Of a DNA stretch of 64,000 bases, positions 5,791 through 18,995 are shown one piece after another. Both the position numbers and the translations under genes were made by a program. This DNA comes from a virus: the IMG/VR virus record IMGVR_UViG_3300047319_000798, positions 1-64,000 of that record; one strand, 5' to 3'. How positions within the stretch are numbered: position 1 is the first letter of the stretch; each line of letters begins with the position of its first letter. A model generated the notes under the pieces. The model was not told the DNA's origin, searched no databases, and was given only the letters and a program-made list of their open reading frames with translations.

Positions 5791-6153
5791 ATGGCCGACG
5801 GCGACAGTGGTCCTCCACTGGTCATCGATCTCCGGCTGAAGCCGGATGCATCACCCCTAGACTTTCTCACGGCCATGTATCGCCATCCCGGCGTTCCGTT
5901 AGGGATGCGTTTGACAGCGGCGCAGAACGCGGCGCAGTATGTTCACCCAAGGCTTGTAGCTATCGCGGCGGTTAGCCCGGGCGGCGAGCGGTTTGAGATC
6001 AAGGGCGGCTTACCCGCGCTACCCGGCGCGCCAACCATAATGCCGGGCAGAGAGGGTCCGATCATTGATGCTAAAGCAACAGTGATTGAACCAACACCAA
6101 TGAAGAAGCCGATCAAGCCAAAGACCCCGGCGGATGAGCCGGTTGATCCGTGA
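5791..6153 (+). CDS. putative terminase small subunit
   Basis: Immediately upstream of TerL; SPLDFL..MY....R..AA..AAQYVHPRL motif. Confidence 0.65.
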   Translation: MADGDSGPPLVIDLRLKPDASPLDFLTAMYRHPGVPLGMRLTAAQNAAQYVHPRLVAIAAVSPGGERFEIKGGLPALPGAPTIMPGREGPIIDAKATVIEPTPMKKPIKPKTPADEPVDP

Positions 6154-7493
6154 CGGTAATCCAGTTTCCAAGGGACAAGGGTAGAGGGCCACCCCCACCG
6201 GAGGGGCCGGATTATACCCGCACTCAGACCATCGAAATTCCCACCTTCCACGAGGATCAGGTCAGGGCTTTCTTTCAGCCCGGGCGCTTTCGCGCGGGCC
6301 GCTGCGGACGACGCTGGGGCAAGACCACGTTTGACGAAGCCATTGCTGCCGATTACGTGGTCAAGGGCGCGAGTGTCGGCTGGTTCGCCCCCAACTACAA
6401 GTACCTCACGGAGCCTATGCGCGACCTTGAGGAAATACTTGCCCCAATCACCATCGACTCAAACAAGTCGATAGGTTACATACACGCCCGCACCAAGGGC
6501 AAGATTGACTTCTGGACGATGGAGGATAGCCGCGCCGGTCGCGGACGTCACTACCATCTAGTGGTAATCGATGAGGCGGCATTCGCGAAGGGGAATGCCA
6601 TGGAAGTTTGGGAGCGGTCTATCCGCCCCACCCTGGTCGATCATCGCGGCGCGGCCCTGGTTACGTCGAACACGAATGGCGTGGACCCCAGTCAGTTCTT
6701 CTGGCGTATATGTAATGAGCCTAAATTCCAGTTCACAGAGTTCCACGCCCCTAGCCGCAACAACCCATTCCTGCCCCCGGAGGAACTGGAGGAGCTTCAA
6801 GCTAAAAGCCACCCTCTAGTCTGGCTACAGGAATATGAGGCAGAGTTTGTCGATTGGCGCGGCGTTGCGTTCTTCAGCCTCGACAAGATGCTGGTCAATG
6901 GCGAGCCGGTCGATTGGCCAAAAATCTGCGACAGCGTCTTTGCCACTGTAGACACCGCGATTAAGTCCGGTAGCGAACACGATGGTACAGCGATCATCTA
7001 CTGGGCGCTGATGAACGTGCCCGAGCCGCAGCTAATCATTCTCGACTGGGATATCGTTCAGATTGACGGCGCGTTCTTAGTTGAGTGGCTGCCCCAAGCG
7101 TTCCGTAAGCTAGAGCAATACACCCATCTGTTTCGCGTGCGCTTCGGCTATGGGTCCATCTTCATAGAGGATAAAGGCTCAGGCACCATTCTCTTACAGG
7201 CCGGAGAAGCACGAGGATGGCCCGTCGTGCCAATCGACGGCGAGATGGTGGCTAAGGGCAAGGACGAGCGGGCGATGGCGGTCTCAGGCTTCCATTACAA
7301 CGGGTGGTGTAAGGTATCGCGCACAGCCTACGACAAGACCATGTTGTTCAAGGAACAAGAGCTGAATCACCTAATCACCCAGATCACTACCTTTCGGGTT
7401 GGTGACAAGGAAGGGTACAAGCGGGCCGATGATCTCTTGGACACTTACTGCTATGGGCTATCGATTGGGCTAGGCGGAAATCAGGGCTTCTGA
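6150..7493 (+). CDS. terL: terminase large subunit
   Basis: Walker A CGRRWGKT, Walker B LVVIDEAA, nuclease domain VDTA..D and DDLLD. Confidence 0.93.
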   Translation: MTVIQFPRDKGRGPPPPEGPDYTRTQTIEIPTFHEDQVRAFFQPGRFRAGRCGRRWGKTTFDEAIAADYVVKGASVGWFAPNYKYLTEPMRDLEEILAPITIDSNKSIGYIHARTKGKIDFWTMEDSRAGRGRHYHLVVIDEAAFAKGNAMEVWERSIRPTLVDHRGAALVTSNTNGVDPSQFFWRICNEPKFQFTEFHAPSRNNPFLPPEELEELQAKSHPLVWLQEYEAEFVDWRGVAFFSLDKMLVNGEPVDWPKICDSVFATVDTAIKSGSEHDGTAIIYWALMNVPEPQLIILDWDIVQIDGAFLVEWLPQAFRKLEQYTHLFRVRFGYGSIFIEDKGSGTILLQAGEARGWPVVPIDGEMVAKGKDERAMAVSGFHYNGWCKVSRTAYDKTMLFKEQELNHLITQITTFRVGDKEGYKRADDLLDTYCYGLSIGLGGNQGF

Positions 7494-7792
7494 TGACGAT
7501 CAACAAAAGGGCAATCGAATTTCATCGCCTTGCGGCGGCGGCGCTTTACGCTGCTGGGGATGCGCATGCCGCAGTGATTGATGCGAAGGATATCAAACAG
7601 GCTAGAGCGCTGGCAATTACAGCCCATCAATTGGGGTTGGAGGCAGCGCTGAAATCTGATACAGCCGCTGCGGCTACAGCAGGTGCGCCAGCCGCCAAGG
7701 AATGGGTCAATCCGCCGCTGCCCCAGCGAGCGCCCGACCCACCGCCAAAGAAGCAAGAGCCGGTAGAGGGGCCGGATAACCCGCGTGCCTGA
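7493..7792 (+). CDS. Ala/Pro-rich hypothetical protein
   Basis: Translationally coupled on both sides. Confidence 0.55.
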   Translation: MTINKRAIEFHRLAAAALYAAGDAHAAVIDAKDIKQARALAITAHQLGLEAALKSDTAAAATAGAPAAKEWVNPPLPQRAPDPPPKKQEPVEGPDNPRA

Positions 7793-9416
7793 CAAGAACT
7801 CATACCTGGAGAGCACCGCGCTCGGAAACAGCCTTGAGGAAATCTTCCTCAGTGGCGACATTATCCCGGGCGACACGGTTAGCTACAGCGTCTGCAAGTC
7901 CATATTCCTTTACCATCCGCTGGGCTTCAAGATGGTCTGCGGCCCGCTCCAGCTGGCTATGTCTGAGGGGCGCGCGGTCACGGTTCCCAATTCCCCGGGC
8001 GAGCGGGTGGCGCAGGTCTTTCAGCAGCAGTGGGAAGAGATTAACGCCGACGCCTACATCTTCCAGACCATGGCCATGTCGCGGGTCTACGGGATTAGCT
8101 CCCTAGCCTTGTTGATCGATGGGGTCGCGCCAACTGAGCCGCTGGACCCCTGGTCATTGCCGGACGCCAATATCGCCTTCAACATTTATGATCCGCTTAA
8201 TACCAGCGGCAGCCTAGTGTTGAACCAGCAGCCGATGTCTATGGATTTTATGAAGGTCCAGGAGATATCGGTTCAGGGCAATGCTTTTCACCGGTCGCGG
8301 GCGATCACGGTTCAGAACGAGTTCCCGGTGTACATTGCCTGGAACCCATCGGCATTCGGCTTCGTGGGCCGGTCTGTTTATCAGCGGGCGTTCTTTCCGC
8401 TGAAGTCCTACTTGAAGTCTATGATCACTGACGACATGATCGAGACTAAGGTTGGCGTGATCGTTGCTAAGATCAAACAGGCTGGGTCGATTGCCAATGC
8501 GGTTATGAAGGCTAGCGCGGCCTTTAAGCGCAACGTGGTCAAGGAGGCGGAGACCGGTAATACAATCAACATCACGCCGGAAGAGGACGTGGTGTCGCTT
8601 AACCTCCAGAATATGGATGGGCCCCATGCGTTGGCACGGCGCAACATCCTTGAGAACATTGCGACGGCGGCGGACATGCCGATCAAGATACTGGCACAAG
8701 AAGCGTTTGTGGAAGGCTTTGGAGAAGGTACAGAGGACGCGCGGGCGGTGGCTCGTTATGTTGATCGGGTTAGGATCACCACCGATCCTTTGTACAGGTT
8801 TTTCGATAAGATTTGTCAATATAGAGCCTGGAGTCCGGCTTTCTTTGAGAGCATGCAACAGGATTTCCCGCAGACCTATGGCGGGATGACCTATCGCGAG
8901 GCTTTCTATAAGTGGTCCAATTCATTTACTACAGAGTGGCCGAGCGTACTTGAAGAGCCTGAGAGTGAGCTGGCACAGCTAGAGGATGTAAAGCTCAAAG
9001 CAGTGATCGCGTTGATCCAGGTGTTTGAGCCTATCCTTGACAGCTCCAACAAGCTTGTACTGTACGAATGGGCGGCGGATAACATCGCTACCAACAAGGT
9101 GATCTTTAGCTCGCCGCTGGAGTTTGATTTTGAACAGCTGTCAGAGCACCTAGCTGATAAGGAAGAGCAAGAACAGGACATCCAAGACGCCCAAACGGAG
9201 GGGTTCCAGAACATGGGCGACCCCGATCAAGCGGGCGGCGGCGCTGGCGCTGGTGGCAGCGTCGAAGTCCCAGTCAAGATGGGCAAGGCAGACGCGCTGG
9301 CGTCACGCTTCGACAAGGCGGCGGCGGCGCTGGCTAAGATATCGCCGGATGCTCAAGACGTGATCCCGATTGGCAAGCTGCGTGACGCGTTGCTCAACAA
9401 AAAGAGGCGACGATAA
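7785..9416 (+). CDS. portal protein (DUF1073-like)
   Basis: 543 aa after TerL; SRVYG, GFVGRSV, IATAADMP..IL, GFGEGTED motifs. Confidence 0.85.
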   Translation: MPDKNSYLESTALGNSLEEIFLSGDIIPGDTVSYSVCKSIFLYHPLGFKMVCGPLQLAMSEGRAVTVPNSPGERVAQVFQQQWEEINADAYIFQTMAMSRVYGISSLALLIDGVAPTEPLDPWSLPDANIAFNIYDPLNTSGSLVLNQQPMSMDFMKVQEISVQGNAFHRSRAITVQNEFPVYIAWNPSAFGFVGRSVYQRAFFPLKSYLKSMITDDMIETKVGVIVAKIKQAGSIANAVMKASAAFKRNVVKEAETGNTINITPEEDVVSLNLQNMDGPHALARRNILENIATAADMPIKILAQEAFVEGFGEGTEDARAVARYVDRVRITTDPLYRFFDKICQYRAWSPAFFESMQQDFPQTYGGMTYREAFYKWSNSFTTEWPSVLEEPESELAQLEDVKLKAVIALIQVFEPILDSSNKLVLYEWAADNIATNKVIFSSPLEFDFEQLSEHLADKEEQEQDIQDAQTEGFQNMGDPDQAGGGAGAGGSVEVPVKMGKADALASRFDKAAAALAKISPDAQDVIPIGKLRDALLNKKRRR

Positions 9417-9925: not shown

Positions 9926-10262
9926 CAGCATCACTTCAGCGCAGGTTGGCACCGCTGTTGTGGCGGTGGCGGGCAGCCTGAAAGGGCTGGCGGTTACGCT
10001 GCCGATTGCGGCCAATGCTGATACCAAGACCCCGTTGATCCTGCTCGACTCAACAACTGGGTCTGGAGTGATCCTGTTTTCGGCTTTTCTTTCGGACCTT
10101 CAGTCGTTCATGTATGCGCTTAAACCGGCTAGCGTTCCACAGCCACCGGCTAGCCCCACGGCGCCAGTGGCGGGAACCGTGTTCACGGGGGTGTTACCCT
10201 TTACCCAAGGGCTGTATGTTAAGAGCTGTCCAGCCAATATGACGGTTACGGCCACCACATGA
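9912..10262 (+). CDS. hypothetical beta-rich virion protein
   Basis: Coupled ORF in head module, Thr/Ala/Val-rich. Confidence 0.6.
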   Translation: MMAANSITSAQVGTAVVAVAGSLKGLAVTLPIAANADTKTPLILLDSTTGSGVILFSAFLSDLQSFMYALKPASVPQPPASPTAPVAGTVFTGVLPFTQGLYVKSCPANMTVTATT

Positions 10263-11128
10263 GTCTGCGTGACTTCCAGGCGGTGATCCGCGAGGCGGTC
10301 AAATATTTTAGCCAACACGGCTATACGTCTGAGCGGGCGCTGGACATTTGGTCAGAACGGATTGCTCAGGCGGCTAAGGAGACCCTGGTCAGCACCGAAG
10401 AAGCTAGTGCCCAGATAGCCCGACATCTAGCGGCGGTCTATGCCCGAATGACTCGTAAGGTGCCCAAGCACCTACAGGCGCTACAGAAGACACGATATGG
10501 GGCACGAATGGGGCCGGAGATGTACTTTCGCCGGGTGTCCACGTTTCCCGAGCTGGTGTACAAGATGCGTAATGAATTAGACCGGCGGATTGCTGCCAGT
10601 GCCGATCTGATCAAAATCCGGCGTGAGGAGAGCCTGGCAGCGACCATGCGTCGGTGGAGGGGTTGGGCGAGCAGCGTTCCTCCCGGCGGCACGCCCACCC
10701 CTCCTAGTAACGAAACCAATTTGCTATTGAAGGATTTCAGGAAAGTTCGATTTGAAACTAATCGACTCAACATTGATCAAGGACATAAGCTCAATTCATC
10801 CCTCAACGCCACTCTCGCTGAGAGCACCGGCGCAATTGCCGGCTTATGGCATTCGAACTGGAAGCAGCTCAATTACAACTATCGCCCAGATCACAAGGAC
10901 CGTGATCTTAAGCTGTACACGATACGCGGCAACTGGGCGATGGTGCAGGGCCTCATGAAAGCGGGGCCGGACGGCTACGCCGATGAGATAACCCAGCCGG
11001 CAGAGGAAGTCTACTGCCGCTGTTGGTATCAGTACATCTACAACCTGGACCGGCTGCCTGAGGCCATGTTGACTGAGAAGGGTAAGAAGGCACTCCAAGC
11101 ATTGAGCGATATTGAATCAGCGGCCTAA
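10259..11128 (+). CDS. Mu gpF/SPP1 gp7-like minor head protein
   Basis: DQGHKL, W-H, RPDH, PAEEVYCRC motifs. Confidence 0.82.
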   Translation: MSLRDFQAVIREAVKYFSQHGYTSERALDIWSERIAQAAKETLVSTEEASAQIARHLAAVYARMTRKVPKHLQALQKTRYGARMGPEMYFRRVSTFPELVYKMRNELDRRIAASADLIKIRREESLAATMRRWRGWASSVPPGGTPTPPSNETNLLLKDFRKVRFETNRLNIDQGHKLNSSLNATLAESTGAIAGLWHSNWKQLNYNYRPDHKDRDLKLYTIRGNWAMVQGLMKAGPDGYADEITQPAEEVYCRCWYQYIYNLDRLPEAMLTEKGKKALQALSDIESAA

Positions 11129-11139
11129 AGGAGACACTC

Positions 11140-11541
11140 ATGGCTGAAGACAAGCAACCCGATAAGCCCGAGCGCCAGAAGATGGAGATGGGCGGCTCCG
11201 GCGTCGCCGAGGTTTCGTTCGCAGACGCTTTTGGCGGTGACGTCAAGATCAAGTCCGTGGTCTGGACCGCGACTGGTGCTGTGGCAGTGACCCCGGATGC
11301 GGACGACCCCACCACAGCCAACATATTCGCGTCGGGACCAGGCCCCGTGACGCTCACAGCAGTGGGCACGACCGAGACTGGCGCCTCAGCGACCGCGATC
11401 ACTGAGATCATGGTCATCGAGAAGGACGCGCCGGTTACGGGTGAAATTGAAGTCACGGTCAAGGCTGCCCCGGCTAAACCCAAGGCACCGGAGCCCAAGG
11501 CACCGGAACCGCCAGTACGGGGGCAGCCCGCGCATCGGTAA
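11140..11541 (+). CDS. Ig-like hypothetical protein
   Basis: GGAG SD; beta-strand pattern VVWTATG...GPVTLTAVG. Confidence 0.6.
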   Translation: MAEDKQPDKPERQKMEMGGSGVAEVSFADAFGGDVKIKSVVWTATGAVAVTPDADDPTTANIFASGPGPVTLTAVGTTETGASATAITEIMVIEKDAPVTGEIEVTVKAAPAKPKAPEPKAPEPPVRGQPAHR

Positions 11542-11993
11542 TGGCTACTCAGCTCACACCGAACTTCACCTTAGAAGAGTTCACCGACAGCCAGACGGCG
11601 GCGCGGCGCGGTATCCATAACGTGCCACGTCCGGCCAGTCAGGAGCACAAGAACCTTCAACGGATGGCCGAGGTTATGGAGCTGGTGCGTACCATCCTCG
11701 ACGGCCATCCTATTTTGATCAGCTCCGGCTATCGTAGCCCAAAGGTTAACACGGCGGTCAAGGGCAGTAAGAGCAGCGCCCATATCCATGGGTTGGCGGT
11801 TGACTTCAGCTGCCCGGGGTTTGGTACGCCAATTGATATCTGCAAGGCGCTAGAGCCGCACATGCGTGAGCTGGGTATCGACCAGCTGATTCATGAATTC
11901 AATACCTGGGTGCATTTGGGCCTGAGCGCGGGTGAACCGCGCCATATGGCGCTGACCATCGATAATCGGGGCACGCATCATGGGTTTGTCTGA
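11541..11993 (+). CDS. peptidase M15 family endolysin
   Basis: LTPNFTLEEF, ISSGYRS, SAHIHGLAVDF, WVHLG zinc-peptidase motifs. Confidence 0.88.
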   Translation: MATQLTPNFTLEEFTDSQTAARRGIHNVPRPASQEHKNLQRMAEVMELVRTILDGHPILISSGYRSPKVNTAVKGSKSSAHIHGLAVDFSCPGFGTPIDICKALEPHMRELGIDQLIHEFNTWVHLGLSAGEPRHMALTIDNRGTHHGFV

Positions 11994-12343
11994 TGCCCGA
12001 CAGCACCCAAGTCTCGTCGCCCCAGCTTCCCGGCGGTGTCATCGTTCCGCCGCCGCCGTTCAAGTTCGTCGATTATCCGGCAGCGTGGGCCGTCACCTTC
12101 GCGGTGGTTGGGTCGATCATCTTGTTGCTGGTCACAGCGCGGTTCGACAACACCAAGGGCGCGTTGACTATCAGCCTTCTGATCATCTTGGCGTTCATTG
12201 GCGTACTCTTCTACAGTGTGACCGTGACGGTGCCTCGCGACGAGACGACGGCGGCGGTGATTGGCGCTCTTACGGCGGCGTTCGGCGGCGTGATTACGTT
12301 CTGGCTTAAGAACCGGGGCGGAGGCGGTAATGCCCCTGACTGA
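11993..12343 (+). CDS. putative holin (3 TM)
   Basis: Three hydrophobic segments; directly after endolysin. Confidence 0.7.
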   Translation: MPDSTQVSSPQLPGGVIVPPPPFKFVDYPAAWAVTFAVVGSIILLLVTARFDNTKGALTISLLIILAFIGVLFYSVTVTVPRDETTAAVIGALTAAFGGVITFWLKNRGGGGNAPD

Positions 12344-12923
12344 AAAGGGCAAAGAGATCAAGAGTTCCATGACGGAACAGTACGGTCCCGAGAAGGGCGA
12401 GGAGGTCTTTTACGCCTCCAAGAACGCAGGAAGGATCAGTGGCGTGGACACGAAAGCCGATCAGCAAGCCCAACCCCAGGCTGCTCAGCCGAAGCCCCAG
12501 CCGCAAGCGGCCCAGCCTCAAGCACAGGGACAGGGGCAGCAGCAAGCCCAGCAGCCGCCGGTTAAGGAGACCAAGACCACGGTTAAGGAACCGGCGGGCG
12601 GCGCAGAGGGTGAGCAGAAGCAAGACCCCAAGGCCACGCTCAAGGCGGCTGAGGATGAACTGGACGCACTGGAGCGCGAGCAGGAGCAATCGGAAGAGGG
12701 CCTGGGTCGCCAGAACGCGATTGAGGACCAGAAGAAGATCATCCGCACGCTGCGCAATGAGATGCGTGAGACTGAGCACAAGGAGCGTATGGGCGTTGCT
12801 GATGCCGTAGAGAAGTTGGAGTATCTTCAAGACAGCACACTGCTCATGAAGCACATCGGCGACGCCTGTGACAAGCTGGCTGACCGGATGGATGCATTTC
12901 AGGCGAAATCAGCGCGGGCCTAA
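12330..12923 (+). CDS. head-associated hypothetical protein
   Basis: MPLTEKGKEI...VFYASKNAG N-terminus, Gln/Pro linker, coiled-coil C-terminus. Confidence 0.65.
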   Translation: MPLTEKGKEIKSSMTEQYGPEKGEEVFYASKNAGRISGVDTKADQQAQPQAAQPKPQPQAAQPQAQGQGQQQAQQPPVKETKTTVKEPAGGAEGEQKQDPKATLKAAEDELDALEREQEQSEEGLGRQNAIEDQKKIIRTLRNEMRETEHKERMGVADAVEKLEYLQDSTLLMKHIGDACDKLADRMDAFQAKSARA

Positions 12924-14134
12924 TGCTCAACGCTGCTGGGATCATCTTTCGCTCACCCCAGGGCCGCGTTCTATTGATGCGGCGCAAGGATGGGAAGTGG
13001 GACTACCCGGGCGGCGGCGCGGAGGGCGATGAGACGGCGGTTCAAACCGCCTTGCGTGAGGCGGTTGAGGAGACCAAATACTATCCCGGGCACGCGGGCC
13101 GGTTTCACGCGCGCCGGGTGCGCAATGGGGTCGATTACACGACCTTCCTTCGCGATTGTGAGGAAGAGTTCGTACCCAAGCTCAGCAATGAGCATACGGA
13201 TTACATTTGGATTGATCCTAAGCGGGTACTGACCCAAAGCATTAACGCCCGGGCCGACGATGCTGCGTGGGAGGAAAGCGATCACCCGCGCGATGAGGAC
13301 GGGAAGTTTGCGGGTGGTGGCGGTCATGTCTCCGCGACCCGGGGCGAGGGCGGCAAGCTAGAGGGCGCACCTGAGCATATCGCCAGCCTAAAGGTGCCGC
13401 CCGCATGGACCGATGTAACCTATGCTCAAGACCCGGGGGCTGCGCTCCTAGTCACCGGACGTGATTCTAAGGGGCGGCGGGTGTTCATCTATTCGGAGAT
13501 GCACGCCCAGAAGCAAGCGGCGCTCAAGTTCGCACGGATCAATGAGCTGGATCAACAGTTCAAAACGGTGGCGAAGCAGAACGCGGCGCTAGCCAAGACC
13601 GCCGGAAAGCGGGACGTGGCCGACTGTCTGGGGCTGATCATGGCGATGGGCATTCGGCCCGGCAGTGATCGCGATACCAAGGCGGCTAAGAAGGCTTACG
13701 GCGCGACAACGCTAGAGGGCCAACACGTAGTCACCGAGGGTGATACAACCTATCTGCGCTACACAGGTAAAAAGGGCGTGGACCTAAACCTGCCAGTACC
13801 CAAAGCGTGGGTTAAGGCACTACAGGAGCGGGCGGATAAGGCGGGGCCAAGCGGGCGATTGTTTGGTGGGGTGACCGATGCGATGTTGCGTGAGCACGTC
13901 CATAGTCTCGATGGTGGCGGGTTCACAACCAAAGATTTCCGCACCCATCTGGGTACGTCAACAGCCACCGAGCTGGTGGAGAGGATGGACGTACCCAAGA
14001 CCCAGGCGGAATATCGCAAGGCGGTTATGGAAGTGGCTAAGAAGGTGTCTTCTGTGCTAGGCAATACACCGGTGATTGCCCTCCAGAGCTACATCAATCC
14101 TAGTGTATTCGGGGCCTGGAAAGCTGCCGCATGA
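12923..14134 (+). CDS. NUDIX hydrolase - DNA topoisomerase IB fusion
   Basis: Nudix box GGGAEGDETAVQTALREAVEET; TopIB VPPAWTDV, GRDSKGR, catalytic R(GIRPG), K(GKKG), R(KDFRT), N(LGNT), Y(SYINP). Confidence 0.9.
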   Translation: MLNAAGIIFRSPQGRVLLMRRKDGKWDYPGGGAEGDETAVQTALREAVEETKYYPGHAGRFHARRVRNGVDYTTFLRDCEEEFVPKLSNEHTDYIWIDPKRVLTQSINARADDAAWEESDHPRDEDGKFAGGGGHVSATRGEGGKLEGAPEHIASLKVPPAWTDVTYAQDPGAALLVTGRDSKGRRVFIYSEMHAQKQAALKFARINELDQQFKTVAKQNAALAKTAGKRDVADCLGLIMAMGIRPGSDRDTKAAKKAYGATTLEGQHVVTEGDTTYLRYTGKKGVDLNLPVPKAWVKALQERADKAGPSGRLFGGVTDAMLREHVHSLDGGGFTTKDFRTHLGTSTATELVERMDVPKTQAEYRKAVMEVAKKVSSVLGNTPVIALQSYINPSVFGAWKAAA

Positions 14135-15462
14135 ACCAGGTCTTCTTTGGCGATGCTGAAAAGCCTCTGCCCGATTGGCGCAAGGAGCCGGATGAGCCGG
14201 ACCCGGACGATGAGGAGCTAGGGGCCACTCCACCGGATGTGGTGGCGATGCTAGGCTTCGATCCATTGGACGTGGCCCGGGCCGATGCGACATGGGAAGA
14301 GGGCGAACACCCGCGCGACGAGGGCGGCAAGTTTACCGCTGGGGGCGCGAGTCAGGCCCCGGGTGTATCTAAGCCCAAACCGGGCAGCTTTCTCTACACA
14401 GCCAAGCCGCTGCCTGAGCATGTAGAGCATAAATACAGGGAAGAGGTTCGACAGGTTAAGGCGCTGCAGCCTGAGTTCGTGGCTAAGATGCGCCAATATC
14501 ACGAATCACTCCAGGCGTTCAAGGGGCTAAAGGCGCGGGCCAATTCCCCAGAGGGTACGTGGGAGGATTGGGAAGCGGTTCAGGCTCATAAAGACCGCCA
14601 CGGACAGATTACCCGCGATATGTACAATATGGAGCCGCCCGGTTACTTCAAGAAAGTGGCGGCGCTAAGGAAGCACGACACCGATCTGCGGGTGATCGAG
14701 AGGACAGTCAAGCCGGTCAAGGCGGAGACCTTGAAGATAGCCAAGCAGTTGGGCTTTCCGCCGGAGCAGGTCAAGGTCCAGTATGAGGATCGTTTTTTCA
14801 CTCTTGCTGGGAAACAGCGCAATTACGCCGGTTCGGCGGATGTTTCGCAGGGCGGCAAGGGCAACATTACAATGTACGCCCGACAGCTGATCCCGGGCAA
14901 GACGGTGGCAGCGGTTGCGGCCCATGAGATACAACACATCCGCTATGCCAACTTCCAGCAGAAACGGCTAGAGCAATACAAAGAGGTTGTGCGCGAAGCC
15001 AGTCAACATGGGCCGATGGGTGATACCAACCCGATAATGGATTGGACCGGGGTGCTCAAGCCGCCCTATGATACAAAATACCCGGAATGGGCTGCCTGGG
15101 CCGCACAGAAGCAAGAATGGAAGAACGCCAAGGTGCCCGATGCGTTTAAGGGTGACAAGTTGTTGGCCGCGTCAGACGGGGTAACACCATACAGCGAGGA
15201 ATGGTGGGACAATTACCATAAGAACCCATCGTCCTCCACGTTTGAGTCAGCGGTCCATGAGACTTTAGCCGAGATGATGGCGCAGGAGTACAAGACCGGG
15301 TTTTTACCCAGCCACTATTGGTCGGGGCCGTTACCACGCCATAACCAGTCGCCTGAGTATCCAGAGGGCTTCGCCACCCACGAGGGGATTGAGGCGGTGG
15401 AAGAAGAGGGTACAAAAGCGTGGCGTAAGCTGTATGCAACCGTGAATGCGGCAGCCAAATGA
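14131..15462 (+). CDS. head-associated zincin-like metallopeptidase
   Basis: AAHEIQH (HExxH), VTPYS, HETLAE; N-terminal WEEGEHPRDEGGKF motif. Confidence 0.7.
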   Translation: MNQVFFGDAEKPLPDWRKEPDEPDPDDEELGATPPDVVAMLGFDPLDVARADATWEEGEHPRDEGGKFTAGGASQAPGVSKPKPGSFLYTAKPLPEHVEHKYREEVRQVKALQPEFVAKMRQYHESLQAFKGLKARANSPEGTWEDWEAVQAHKDRHGQITRDMYNMEPPGYFKKVAALRKHDTDLRVIERTVKPVKAETLKIAKQLGFPPEQVKVQYEDRFFTLAGKQRNYAGSADVSQGGKGNITMYARQLIPGKTVAAVAAHEIQHIRYANFQQKRLEQYKEVVREASQHGPMGDTNPIMDWTGVLKPPYDTKYPEWAAWAAQKQEWKNAKVPDAFKGDKLLAASDGVTPYSEEWWDNYHKNPSSSTFESAVHETLAEMMAQEYKTGFLPSHYWSGPLPRHNQSPEYPEGFATHEGIEAVEEEGTKAWRKLYATVNAAAK

Positions 15463-15668
15463 TAGAGCGCACGATCATTGATGGGCGCGTGGCCAGTGTA
15501 GCCTATCTGACCGATGACTTTCAACCGGCGGGTATTGAGACCGCTACCTTGCTTAAGATCATCTTTGATGATGGAATGGTTGCCTTTGCGCGGAACAGTG
15601 ATGCCGATCTGTCTGAGGCTGAGATGGATGAGCTCCTGGAAAGCCTGGGGCTGACGGATGAAGATTGA
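15459..15668 (+). CDS. small acidic hypothetical protein
   Basis: ATGA-coupled to the zincin gene. Confidence 0.6.
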   Translation: MIERTIIDGRVASVAYLTDDFQPAGIETATLLKIIFDDGMVAFARNSDADLSEAEMDELLESLGLTDED

Positions 15669-16374
15669 CCTGCTTCCCGGGGTGGAGGTTGCGTTACGCC
15701 GTCTGTCGATGACCGAGATGGACGTGGCGGAGGCGATACGGGATGGCGAGCTTGCCTCTCCGCAGCAGTTTGAGAACGCGACACTCGTAGACATGCGGAT
15801 CAGCGGGACTGGCATCTCGTATCGCCCTAAGCTCAAGGAGTGGGTGTACAGGCGACCGGAGATTTATCTGACTGATACATTCTTGAGACGGTGTCAGGGC
15901 ATTCCAGTCATCTATGAGCACCCTGATAACACGGTGCTGGATTCAAAGTCCTTTACCAAGCGCATCGTGGGCGTGATGCAGCTGCCCTACATAAAGGGCG
16001 AGGATGTCTGGGGCATTGCCCGGGTTTACGACAAGGAAACTGTTAACGAACTGACTAGCGAACCGCTATCCACGTCACCCAGTGTTGTATTCCGCGACCC
16101 GACAGTTAACTATGAGGTCGAATTGGATAGTGGGGAGACGCTGTTAGTGGAGGGTAATCCCAGCTACCTTGATCATCTGGCGATCTGTGCTAATGGGGTC
16201 TGGGATAAGGGCGGCGACCCCACAGGGGTTCGTGTAGACAGCGTTGATCCGCGCATGCTAGCGATTGCGGACAGCATCGACAATTTGGAGCGACGGTTAA
16301 CCCGTCATCTGATAACCCGGGCCGTTGGGCGTCTGGAACGGCGTATCGAGCAAGTGGAGGCCAACTATGGCTGA
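15658..16374 (+). CDS. DUF2213-like putative prohead protease
   Basis: YRRPE, GIPVIYEHP, STSPSV, DHLAIC..GVWDKGG; position before scaffold and capsid. Confidence 0.8.
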   Translation: MKIDLLPGVEVALRRLSMTEMDVAEAIRDGELASPQQFENATLVDMRISGTGISYRPKLKEWVYRRPEIYLTDTFLRRCQGIPVIYEHPDNTVLDSKSFTKRIVGVMQLPYIKGEDVWGIARVYDKETVNELTSEPLSTSPSVVFRDPTVNYEVELDSGETLLVEGNPSYLDHLAICANGVWDKGGDPTGVRVDSVDPRMLAIADSIDNLERRLTRHLITRAVGRLERRIEQVEANYG

Positions 16375-17257
16375 TCGTAAGGATGAAGGCGGTGGTGGCG
16401 AGCCCATCGATAAGGTGCTGTCGAAGCTCGACGCGCTAGGCACGCGCATGGATGCCTTGGAAACGGGTACAGGCCACAAGAACCCGCTCAAGGGTGACGC
16501 GGCTGAGGAAGACAAGGACAAGGAAGAGAAGGGCGACGAATTTCCGCCCAAGGACAAGGAAGAGAAGGACGACAAGAAGGGCGACGCCAAGAAGGACGAG
16601 GGCGAGCAGGAAGAGGGCAAGAAGCCCCCACCGGTTGCGGCCGACAAGAAGGGCGACGCGGGGTCCGCGCCTCCGGCGGCAGCCACCGTCGCGCCCGACA
16701 AGAAGGGCGATGCTGAAGAGGACAAGAAGGAGGACGAGCGGCGTGACGCCGCTATCGCGGACGCCGCCAGCCGCAACACCAAGCTGGAGCGTCAGCTGGA
16801 GGCCCAGGCCAAGGAAATTGTGCGCCTCACGGCTATGATGAAGCCGCGCAGCGATGATGAGCACGCCGCGTTCGCTGAGGCTCAGGCCAAGGCGGATAGC
16901 GTGTTTATGGGCTTCGGCAAGGCTGCGCCGCGCCCGCTGGAGGGGGAGGCGCTGATCAATTATCGTAAGCGCTTGGCCACTCTCCTCAAGCCCCATTCAG
17001 CAATCTGGAAGTCGGTCAAGTTCAGCCAGCTTCCGGAGGAGGCGTTCTCCATTGCTGAAGCTCAGGTCTATTCGGATGCGGCGGTAGCAGCCGCGTCCCC
17101 GACCGATCTGGGCGACGGGGAGCTGCGCGAGGTTAGCCGCACCGACCCGCGTACCGGCCAGAAAACCAATGTGTTCTATGGTCGTGACAGCTTCGTCAAG
17201 AGCATGGGACGCCCTGCGCGCCGGGTGGCCAGCTTCCGCACCCAGTTCCCCAACTAA
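16367..17257 (+). CDS. capsid scaffolding protein
   Basis: GGAGG SD; highly charged low-complexity N-half with repeated KGDA; APRPLEGE...YRKRL. Confidence 0.75.
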   Translation: MADRKDEGGGGEPIDKVLSKLDALGTRMDALETGTGHKNPLKGDAAEEDKDKEEKGDEFPPKDKEEKDDKKGDAKKDEGEQEEGKKPPPVAADKKGDAGSAPPAAATVAPDKKGDAEEDKKEDERRDAAIADAASRNTKLERQLEAQAKEIVRLTAMMKPRSDDEHAAFAEAQAKADSVFMGFGKAAPRPLEGEALINYRKRLATLLKPHSAIWKSVKFSQLPEEAFSIAEAQVYSDAAVAAASPTDLGDGELREVSRTDPRTGQKTNVFYGRDSFVKSMGRPARRVASFRTQFPN

Positions 17258-17293: not shown

Positions 17294-17923
17294 ATGGCAT
17301 TTCAGTTCAACCCCTATGTCCAGACCAGTGCGGCTGGAATGTTCAACATTGAATCCGATGGATTCGTTGTTGGCACCGCTATGCCTGACCCGTCTTCCCG
17401 CAACTGGTTGGCGGGCGGCTGGTTGGCGGCCACTGAGACGCTACCGATGTTTGGCGGTATCGCGATCAGTGAAAACGTTCCGCAGGAGCGTCCTCCGGTC
17501 AGCCGGATGGATACGGCTCTCGGCGGGGCCATCATCCGCGCTACCGTCAACACGGCCACTAACGCTGCGGGTAGCATCACAGGCTTTAGCGTGTTCGACC
17601 AGAATTATGCCATGGTCAATACGCCCCAAAGCCCGTGCCCCAGTGTCCAAGCCGGGGGCCTGGTCAACTTCTACCGTCTGGGCTCACAGGCCCGGGTGGC
17701 GCTGGCAATCGACCCGACGTTGATCTCTTTGGAGGGCGGTATCATTACGGCTCAGGTGAGCTGGGATGTTACTAACCAGAAGATCATCGCCTTCGCCACC
17801 AATGCTCTGCCGGTCAAAATCCTTGCGATCAAGGCCAGTAACTGCATGGTCCCGGTCTACACGTCTGGTACTGGACAAGTGACCTGGAATTACAACGGAG
17901 CAGCGGCGCTCTGCTTGCTGTGA
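17294..17923 (+). CDS. head decoration/cement protein
   Basis: Between scaffold and MCP; PMFGGIAISE, NFYRLGSQAR. Confidence 0.7.
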   Translation: MAFQFNPYVQTSAAGMFNIESDGFVVGTAMPDPSSRNWLAGGWLAATETLPMFGGIAISENVPQERPPVSRMDTALGGAIIRATVNTATNAAGSITGFSVFDQNYAMVNTPQSPCPSVQAGGLVNFYRLGSQARVALAIDPTLISLEGGIITAQVSWDVTNQKIIAFATNALPVKILAIKASNCMVPVYTSGTGQVTWNYNGAAALCLL

Positions 17924-17972: not shown

Positions 17973-18995
17973 ATGGCTACGATTTCCCCGTCCTTTGCTC
18001 AGGTGCATCCGTCATACACGATGCCTGAGACACTGATGCCTTATACACAGGCGTCAGGCGCGTTCGAGTTGCTGGCAGACGGTGGACCTATGGTCCGGCT
18101 GGCTGATGGCGATTTGTATGCTTACATCAAGCGCATCGACGTTCGCACCCGTATGGCTGCGGGCCAGAGCGCCTATAACCAATTGCCCGGGGTGTCGTTC
18201 GCCCTTGGCCAGATCAGTGCGCCGTCTTATCTCTTGCGGGTGCGCGCCGAGTATGACCACCACGACACGGCGGCCATGGCTCGTTGGGGTATCTCGATTG
18301 TTGAGGCCCACCGCCTTGGTATGCGTCAGGCTGCGTTCCAGATCATGCGTAACGGGTTGTTGTATGGCTTCAACCCAACCAATGGTGAAGGCTTGCTCAA
18401 CGCAGCCGGGGCGACGTCCATCCCGCTGCCCCCTGACAGCGCCAGCAACGCGACCGTGGTCACTTACGACAATGGTCAAATGGCGTTCTTCATCATCGCC
18501 CAGATCAGTGCGATCAAGACCCGGACTAACCAGCTGGGGATTGGCCACAAGTTCGTGATCGTGGGGCCGCAGCGTACACTGGGCGCGTTCGAGTACCAAA
18601 ACATCGTCCAGCTGACCAGCTATCAGCGCCCGGGCGCGGGTTCGACTAGCACCGCCGGTCTCATCAAGGATGTTCTGGAAATGAACGATGATGAGATTTA
18701 CTGGGGCTATGACGACACGCTCATTGGTAAGGGCGCGGGCGGTAACGATGCGGTGATCATCGTCATGCCCGAGGTGGAACAGCCCAAGGGCCAGAGGATC
18801 AACACCAACGAGTTCGCCAAGTTGACGCCCTCGATGGAGGCTTGCACGCTGATGCTCTGCGATATGGCGGCACCCAAGGAAATCCCGGTTCCGCTGGCGG
18901 GCGGCGCCATCGACGTTCTTGCTGAGATGCGTACGACTTCCGGCTGGGGTGTTCGCCCGGAGGCCATTACCGTCATCAGCATGCAGTACTCTTAA
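17973..18995 (+). CDS. major capsid protein
   Basis: 340 aa, AGGAG SD, LLYG...GLLN, C-terminal RTTSGWGVRPEAI (DUF2184-like), followed by terminator. Confidence 0.85.
   Translation: MATISPSFAQVHPSYTMPETLMPYTQASGAFELLADGGPMVRLADGDLYAYIKRIDVRTRMAAGQSAYNQLPGVSFALGQISAPSYLLRVRAEYDHHDTAAMARWGISIVEAHRLGMRQAAFQIMRNGLLYGFNPTNGEGLLNAAGATSIPLPPDSASNATVVTYDNGQMAFFIIAQISAIKTRTNQLGIGHKFVIVGPQRTLGAFEYQNIVQLTSYQRPGAGSTSTAGLIKDVLEMNDDEIYWGYDDTLIGKGAGGNDAVIIVMPEVEQPKGQRINTNEFAKLTPSMEACTLMLCDMAAPKEIPVPLAGGAIDVLAEMRTTSGWGVRPEAITVISMQYS

Follow-up and report, generated by a model that had tools for sequence, protein, structure and literature searches.

The first 64 kb of a complete 77,970-bp virus record in IMG/VR (IMGVR_UViG_3300047319_000798, an uncultured soil virus; positions 1 to 64,000, hereafter the window) contain two adjacent genes, open reading frame (ORF) A and ORF B, whose products share one short peptide, the tag. 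In ORF A the tag stands before a type IB topoisomerase (TopIB) and in ORF B before a zincin-like core. The reading that we favour, with somewhat less than even confidence, is that the tag is a recognition-and-release signal for head assembly on enzymes carried in the capsid; this reading builds on how the tag is placed, conserved and distributed in phage sequences. The two genes and their parts are as follows.

12923-14134, + strand: ORF A, 403 aa, NUDIX / tag / Gly linker / type IB topoisomerase (ORF list; Pfam models NUDIX, Top1B_N_bact and Topoisom_I)
12932-13240, + strand: NUDIX hydrolase domain, residues 4-106 (PF00293, E 1e-15, above cut-off)
13247-13324, + strand: tag copy 1, ARADDAAWEESDHPRDEDGKF (13247-13309), with AGGGG linker; tag at residues 109-129 of ORF A
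13373-14116, + strand: TopIB N-terminal and catalytic domains, residues 151-398 (PF21338 and PF01028 above cut-offs; Pfam 151-383, E 2e-19)
14131-15462, + strand: ORF B, 443 aa, mini-module / tag / linker / helical region / zincin-like core (ORF list, homologue alignment, AlphaFold 2 (AF2) model)
14131-14271, + strand: acidic mini-module, ORF B residues 1-47 (...PLPDWR...DDEELGATPPDVVAMLGFDPL), single-copy in this genome
14275-14349, + strand: tag copy 2, ARADATWEEGEHPRDEGGKF (14275-14334), with TAGGA linker; tag at residues 49-68 of ORF B
14713-15459, + strand: putative zincin-like metallopeptidase core, residues ~195-443 (HEIQH at 14923-14937, HETLAEM at 15256-15276)

Two copies of the tag in one genome

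Both tags were found where the initial annotation had placed them, at 13247-13309 and 14275-14334, each with the Gly-rich linker that it had described (AGGGG in ORF A, TAGGA in ORF B). Both genes also lie, as it had stated, between the MuF gene (10259-11128) and the DUF2213 protease/scaffold pair (15658-17257). Its claim that the two products are otherwise unrelated agreed with our BLASTP comparison, in which the tag stretch alone aligned (18/26 identical, E 3e-7) and nothing else appeared below E 3. The DNA pattern for W.E..HPR...G.F matched twice in the window against 0.00 expected from 100 shuffles, and a profile built from 116 other tags scored 47 bits at copy 1 and 42 bits at copy 2, the next best site in the window reaching 4 bits. 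The remaining 14 kb held no third copy, and the whole 78-kb genome has two.

The AF2 models of ORF A and ORF B were built on alignments of 7-8 sequences. The predicted local distance difference test score (pLDDT) of the tag was 29-38 in ORF A and about 52 in ORF B, and in both models the tag was sandwiched by well-folded domains; ORF A was modelled as two folded domains with a disordered segment, 101-147, between them. The tag is thus predicted to be intrinsically disordered, which would fit a flexible recognition peptide rather than part of a fold.

Consensus and spread of the tag family

The family consensus is D-A-E-W-[DEN]-E-x-x-H-P-R-x-x-x-G-[KQR]-F, followed by a Gly/Ser-rich linker and preceded by a variable, often hydrophobic lead-in. 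A scan of IMG/VR with W.E..HPR...G.F gave at least 129 matches in at least 112 stretches, nearly all of them in-frame. The sample used below (the matches listed) consists of the first 112 stretches in scan order, not a random draw, and its statistics ignore relatedness. Although the search pattern fixed seven positions, the unselected positions -3..-1, +1, +3, +4, +8..+10, +12 and +14..+19 were also biased. Among the matches listed, conservation beyond the pattern comprised D-A-E/D before the W, D/E/N at +1, S/G/A at +3, K/D/E at +4, K/Q/R before the F and a G-x-G-G-G run after it.

The initial annotation had proposed cleavage at RAD, which our data do not support. Family-wide, the residues before the W are D(-3) A(-2) E/D(-1) rather than R-A-D, and RAD was rejected as a cleavage site because it is not conserved across the family. 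The ARAD shared by the two copies reflects 11 nt of identical DNA (GCCCGGGCCGA) at 13247-13257 and 14275-14285, where the related genome L121, described below, differs. Identity over this stretch suggests that the two copies in this genome share descent, arose by a recent duplication or underwent gene conversion.

At E<=1e-3, a profile of 118 tags matched the representatives of 3,734 clusters (50% identity) out of 1.84e9; 408 of these reached E<=1e-10 or better, reflecting multiple copies. The largest number in one protein was 18 (P0076, 7,334 aa), followed here by P0077 (5,313 aa) with 16, and in such giant multi-module proteins one tag stands ahead of each module. At L058 (991-5016), 5-6 tags occur within 1,354 aa, each after a short hydrophobic strand-like motif (e.g. 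WVADAEW). Cultured phages with the tag were rare, about 15 records, mostly under or at the portal gene position; they include Burkholderia phiE131, Xanthomonas PhiXhv-5, P. syringae phage Orimi01, a Helicobacter prophage and Faecalibacterium phage FP_Brigit. A tblastn search with the consensus tag found no match in 72,556 plasmids, a result of limited power given that the same query found 12 of 50,697 cultured phage records. The tag profile had 0 matches to PDB sequences at E<=10. We found no published description of the tag in the literature on capsid targeting, on polyvalent proteins or on the motif itself.

Two variant forms were recognized. One sub-family, W-x-E-x-L-H-P-R-G/D-x-x-G-R/Q/E-F and often without a Gly linker, occurs in L011, L033, L040, L042, L052, L060 and L106, which are phage genomes without DUF2213 and without phrog_324 MuF; this LHPR type had no match among cultured phages. 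The other, F-D-P/E-x-x-P-R-D-x-x-G-K/R-W, is found in homologues of ORF B.

Polarity of the tag and its partners

Tag-bearing ORFs from the matches listed were split at their tags, and the pieces were scanned against Pfam. Portals made up 26 of the 66 pieces before a first tag (Phage_portal_3, 21; Portal_Mu, 5), alongside NUDIX (4-6), InPase (3) and one each of DUF2213, MuF and S78. The 129 pieces after tags contained ADP-ribosyltransferases (11+3+1), LPD3 (9), PBECR1/2/3 (8), Zeta toxin (6) and DUF2213 (5), more rarely 2'-5' RNA ligase (2) and single cases of TopIB, ParB, GNAT, kinases and others, and no portal. The tag stood immediately ahead of the DUF2213 protease domain in 5-6 proteins and, in most portal fusions, ~0-50 residues past the end of the portal domain. 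For the 93 distinct tags in ORFs that end in a genuine stop codon, the sequence downstream had a minimum of 68 and a median of 263 residues, none falling below 60; upstream, the distance from the preceding stop to the tag was as short as 3 codons. Because a module-sized sequence follows every tag and portals occur solely before it, the unit is tag, linker and module, and the upstream partner can be anything or almost nothing.

These results bear out the view of the initial annotation that the tag is modular, since it precedes many unrelated enzymes (ADP-ribosyltransferases, Zeta kinases, PBECR RNases, LPD3, TopIB and others). The NUDIX domain, which had been counted among the tagged cargo, stands upstream of the tag and so does not belong to that cargo. 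The statement that similar HPR..G.F motifs occur in other head-region proteins was correct. Tags were found in head-gene neighbourhoods.

The 10 residues before the tag were more hydrophobic in stand-alone than in portal-fused proteins (Kyte-Doolittle -0.30 vs -0.98, Mann-Whitney p 0.004, uncorrected for ancestry), which is consistent with a separate carrier element. Possible partners were sought in 35 long tag-bearing IMG/VR records from the matches listed, 17 of them >=90% complete. MuF (phrog_324) and DUF2213 were each present in the same 11 of the 17 complete genomes. MuF may therefore not be a universal partner, although a divergent MuF could have escaped the search. The Gly-linker form of the tag, as in the window, went with DUF2213 (odds ratio 11, Fisher p 0.002, uncorrected for shared ancestry), and the tag-bearing genomes without DUF2213 mostly had LHPR or linker-less variants. 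Tags also occurred beside Portal_Mu, Phage_portal_2 and S78 proteases (PF06074, PF05136 and PF04586 among the portal and protease families). That tag sub-types appear to track head lineages favours a partner in the head-assembly machinery over a universal host factor. The literature on DUF2213 yielded nothing on cleavage specificity.

A zincin core of the ORF B type was detected with a single-sequence query in 0 of the 17 complete and 2 of all 35 tag-bearing genomes. This type was accordingly rejected as the general processing enzyme on its absence from the complete genomes, a search that could miss divergent zincins.

The tag as a recombination joint

A related phage contig, L121 (IMGVR_UViG_3300036832_000480), has ~74% nucleotide identity and the same order of head genes. 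In place of ORF A and ORF B, L121 carries one 500-residue gene encoding NUDIX, tag and zincin (P0002). In our blastn comparison, L121 323-1265 corresponded to window 12329-13324 and L121 1190-3152 to window 14274-16242, so that the single tag of L121 aligned to both tags of the window. The segment between the two matches, bounded exactly by the two tags, is as follows.

13325-14273, + strand: inter-tag segment of 949 nt (TopIB body, overlap of ORF A stop and ORF B start, ORF B mini-module), no counterpart in L121 by blastn

Such an arrangement is the signature of recombination between two direct repeats, which either deleted the segment or inserted it as a cassette. In a second relative, P0051, the order NUDIX, tag and TopIB is retained. 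The tag is therefore a joint for module exchange. The tag repeats of the window and of L121 differ at synonymous sites, which indicates that selection acts on the peptide and that recombination is a by-product.

Modules of ORF A

ORF A combines two unrelated enzyme domains, NUDIX and TopIB, in one polypeptide. Its NUDIX box reads GGAEGDETAVQTALREAVEETKY, in which Lys replaces the last Gly of GX5EX7REUXEEXGU, and the domain shares 85% identity with the NUDIX part of the L121 fusion. The TopIB part aligned to TopIB of D. radiodurans (2f4q; phmmer E 1.1e-22) with IRPGSD, GKKGV, KDFRT, LGNTP and SYI matched; in our own reading of this alignment, the R/K/R/N/Y active-site positions appear conserved. 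No relatives of ORF A were found in metagenome contigs.

NUDIX domains without a tag are fused to the C-terminus of the portal in Bcep781 (gp17, L118) and stand at the N-terminus of protease-scaffold proteins in BcepB1A (gp26, L119), phrog_6216 and P0075. Judging from these fusions, NUDIX behaves like a carrier, a recurrent head-associated domain that in the window is split off and joined to TopIB via the tag.

Modules of ORF B

The initial annotation had each tag preceding an enzyme domain; this holds for TopIB, on Pfam and the 2f4q alignment, while the zincin identity of ORF B stands at a lower level of support. The HEIQH and HETLAEM motifs were invariant in 8 homologues (H265/E266/H269 and E377-M382), in which the tag or a variant tag stands directly before the core, and the pLDDT of the core was 80-94. 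The sole long structural match of ORF B was anthrax lethal factor (1yqy_A; Z 7.8, 217 residues aligned, root-mean-square deviation 4.6). Weak leads to zincins came from Atlas (ATLF / Peptidase_Mx1 / SprT) and from Foldseek (selecase, probability 0.82). No significant zincin match was obtained in Pfam, PHROG, PDB sequences (0 with the family profile) or Foldseek. ORF B had no match among cultured phages and no relative in viral contigs. Taken together, motifs and model give moderate support for a zincin-like core. A wider structural search with the ORF B model was dominated by a helical hairpin.

The mini-module at the head of ORF B, which the initial annotation does not mention, recurs elsewhere. 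Over residues 3-46 it shares 70% identity with the N-terminus of P0012, a tagless DUF2213 protease-scaffold protein, and the pattern, ~45-50 residues long, is ...HFG....PLPDWR...DPDDEEL.TPPDVV.MLGFDP.... It also heads P0075 (a NUDIX-protease fusion), P0008 (which has another zincin type) and two ADP-ribosyltransferases (P0009 and P0010). We found it at 15 IMG/VR loci (L122-L136), against ~0.01 expected by chance according to our own estimate. Its positions are the C-terminus of the portal ORF, a free ORF of ~50-95 codons between portal and MuF, a free ORF between the tag-cargo gene and the protease gene, and the N-terminus of the protease. Several free mini-module ORFs (L125, L127, L128, L131 and L134) overlap the end of the portal or cargo gene, or the start of the protease gene, in another frame; these may be genes of their own, frameshifted fusions or errors of assembly.

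The mini-module is a second mobile element, and ORF B looks like a head-module mini-protein fused in frame to a tag-zincin module. In ORF B it occupies the usual slot of the mini-protein, before the protease. It is a candidate carrier or targeting element at least as good as the tag.

Proposed recognition and release, and the alternatives

In the mechanism that we favour, an upstream carrier (portal, prohead protease, NUDIX or mini-module) would bring the polypeptide into the procapsid. The exposed tag would then be recognized by a component of head assembly of the Phage_portal_3/MuF/DUF2213-protease lineage, the maturation protease being the likeliest. The enzyme module would be held, then cut from its carrier, and would leave the capsid with the DNA. 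Since the peptide is conserved, its DNA could double as a joint for the gain, loss and swap of modules. For tag-bearing enzymes in general, we infer packaging, protease recognition, cleavage and ejection from sequence. The strongest arguments for recognition and release come from position: the tag sits exactly between the portal, which is retained in the capsid, and effectors that must leave. Since the portal stays in the capsid, a fused effector would reach the host only if it were released at the tag junction. Equally strong are the presence of one tag per module in polyproteins, the flexible linker alongside and the link to one protease lineage.

Several points weigh against this mechanism. 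With its 14-20 residues and invariant W, H, P, R, G and F, the motif is far stricter than known prohead-protease sites, which favours a binding epitope over a plain cut site. The other of the two strongest counter-arguments is that, in the matches listed, stand-alone proteins with leaders of 3-13 residues, which leave little to be released, keep the tag. Six of the 17 complete phages have variant tags but neither DUF2213 nor phrog_324 MuF, and variant tags also stand beside other portal and protease families (PF05136, PF06074, PF04586). The association with DUF2213 was calculated without correction for shared ancestry, ORF A has no obvious carrier besides NUDIX, and the support as a whole comes from sequence and models.

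A possible, though rather doubtful, alternative is that the tag is a self-sufficient capsid-targeting or ejection signal, which would dock cargo to portal, MuF, capsid or scaffold, or lead it through the tail, with no cleavage. Such a signal is essentially the idea of the initial annotation and would work like the T4 capsid-targeting sequence or an encapsulin cargo-loading peptide. Known loading peptides have the same build, a short conserved peptide joined to unrelated cargo through a flexible Gly linker, and a predicted disordered tag, its retention behind very short leaders, the location of tagged genes in head operons and the adherence of the Gly-linker form to one head lineage would all fit such a signal. 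A targeting signal would be superfluous where the cargo is already fused to a portal, yet the tag is equally conserved there, and polyproteins would not need a copy per module (up to 18). Nor did a universal partner emerge: of the 17 complete genomes, 11 have MuF and 11 have DUF2213, and the portals belong to three families. Another element may do the targeting, such as the hydrophobic lead-in (p 0.004) or the mini-module of ORF B.

We consider it unlikely that the tag acts in the host after injection, as a linear motif for a chaperone, protease, polymerase or membrane site that would refold, activate, localize or time the destruction of the enzyme. In favour of such a role, the core has been kept in phages that differ widely in host and head type, and every module carries the tag irrespective of the carrier. 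However, tag sub-types follow the phage head lineage, which is unexpected for a universal host partner; the tag also precedes the prohead protease, which works inside the procapsid, and no candidate host partner is known.

It is very improbable that the tag is a substrate site of the co-encoded zincin, with ORF B cutting itself and ORF A. ORF B has an intact HExxH and a downstream Glu motif and adjoins the sole other tagged protein, its homologues have the tag or a variant directly before the core, and peptidases of this kind have been predicted for polyvalent proteins (Iyer et al. 2017). The rarity of the ORF B-type core (0/17 complete and 2/35 of all tag-bearing genomes, at single-sequence sensitivity) and the presence of one metallopeptidase by Pfam among the 129 post-tag modules listed would make this a local mechanism at best. 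That the tag has no biochemical role and is a linker kept as a recombination handle for module shuffling is hardly credible: although it is the exact boundary of the indel between window and L121, and NUDIX-tag is joined to TopIB in the window and P0051 and to zincin in P0002/L121, it is conserved as an amino-acid sequence, even the window copies and L121 showing synonymous differences, positions outside the search pattern are also biased, and W, H, P, R, G and F would not persist across 3,734 clusters.

Genome setting

The genome is that of a myovirus, with its own DNA polymerase, tape-measure, baseplate and sheath genes. ORF A and ORF B, whose stop and start codons overlap, are flanked by MuF and by the protease, scaffold and capsid genes. 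The other genes of the head operon are as follows.

6150-7493, + strand: terminase
7785-9416, + strand: portal protein (phrog_146, E 5e-44)
10259-11128, + strand: MuF-like head morphogenesis protein (phrog_324, E 1e-18)
11541-11993, + strand: M15 peptidoglycan peptidase (PF08291, E 1e-18)
11993-12343, + strand: small membrane protein
12330-12923, + strand: Gln/Pro-rich coiled-coil protein
15459-15668, + strand: 69-aa ORF
15658-16374, + strand: DUF2213 prohead protease (with the scaffold, 15658-17257: phrog_6216, phrog_530 and a weak PF09979 match)
16325-17257, + strand: scaffold (same matches as the protease)
17294-17923, + strand: 209-aa protein
17973-18995, + strand: major capsid protein (phrog_6671, E 5e-147; weak PF09950 match)

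The genes for the M15 peptidase, the membrane protein and the Gln/Pro-rich coiled-coil protein (11541-12923) lie inside the head operon, from MuF to the tagged genes. This position is unusual for a lysis-type enzyme, and the M15 peptidase may therefore be virion-associated. The 69-aa ORF between the zincin and protease genes encodes a very acidic C-terminus (...SEAEMDELLESLGLTDED) and overlaps both neighbours at its start and stop; L121 has conserved this DNA within a continuous blastn block.

Comparison with known systems

The capsid-targeting sequence of T4 is an N-terminal signal of ~10-20 residues on internal proteins and Alt that is removed by the gp21 prohead protease. Like the tag, it is a short peptide ahead of unrelated cargo, including an ADP-ribosyltransferase; the T4 cargo is packed in the head and injected, as tagged enzymes would be. 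The T4 signal is strictly N-terminal and specific to one lineage, whereas the tag is often internal (109-129 in ORF A; from 49 in ORF B), is repeated up to 18 times, occurs downstream of portals and in thousands of clusters, and has no sequence similarity to the T4 signal. Cleavage is known in T4, whereas for the tag we infer binding and cleavage from position and from the association with DUF2213.

The cargo-loading peptides of encapsulins are mostly C-terminal, are attached by a flexible Gly/Pro-rich linker and bind the interior of a shell with the HK97 fold, the fold of phage capsids. They resemble the tag as conserved short peptides with a flexible linker on unrelated enzymes; the tag differs in being N-terminal to its cargo (C-terminal in 0 of the 93 tags among the matches listed) and in sequence. 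Pre-toxin junctions are marked by VENN in CdiA and by DPxGL in Rhs, the Rhs motif being also a cleavage site. In these polymorphic toxins, as with the tag, a short motif separates the constant part used for delivery from an exchangeable enzyme or toxin and acts as a recombination joint, but the sequence and the delivery route are different, the route of the tag being the phage head. The tag would thus work like the T4 signal, the encapsulin peptides and the pre-toxin motifs by analogy, without being a member of any of these groups.

Closest in content are the polyvalent proteins of phages, for which processing by metallopeptidases, packaging and injection have been predicted (Iyer, Burroughs, Anand, de Souza and Aravind 2017, PMC5512222). 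These head-anchored effectors likewise combine several unrelated enzyme or effector domains, either within a single polypeptide or across neighbouring late or head genes, and the wider tag family shares ART-PolyVal, LPD3, LPD13, PBECR1-3, InPase, DdrB-ParB, NUDIX and zincin peptidases with them. The window proteins differ in being small, with two modules each, and the ORF B-type zincin is unlikely to be a general processor; the window modules are NUDIX, TopIB and a zincin-like core that matches no Pfam model. By text search, a common header before modules is not described in PMC5512222, and TopIB is not among the domains listed there. The paper on MuF toxins makes no mention of a motif, a linker or cleavage (Jamet et al. 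2017, PMC5576092), and MuF stood upstream of the tag in 1 of the 66 pieces among the matches listed. The L121 joint, the mini-module and the co-occurrence of tag forms with head genes are new in this analysis.

Phages are known or suspected to carry enzymes in their capsids and to inject them with the DNA. To our knowledge, how capsid cargo is chosen, held and released outside T4 is largely unknown. A wider proposal, which we regard as doubtful, is that the tag is a portable, near-universal address-and-release label of tailed phages, such that the protein behind it is loaded, freed from its carrier and injected. If this were true, there would be a peptide code common to thousands of phage lineages, and the division of giant polyvalent proteins into working enzymes would have an explanation. 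A single peptide ahead of cargo modules in at least 3,734 protein clusters offers a concrete and easily testable handle on the cargo question. It also supplies an annotation rule for cutting giant polyvalent proteins into functional units, and the comparison with L121 gives a direct view of how a whole enzyme, TopIB, may be gained or lost by recombination between copies of the tag.

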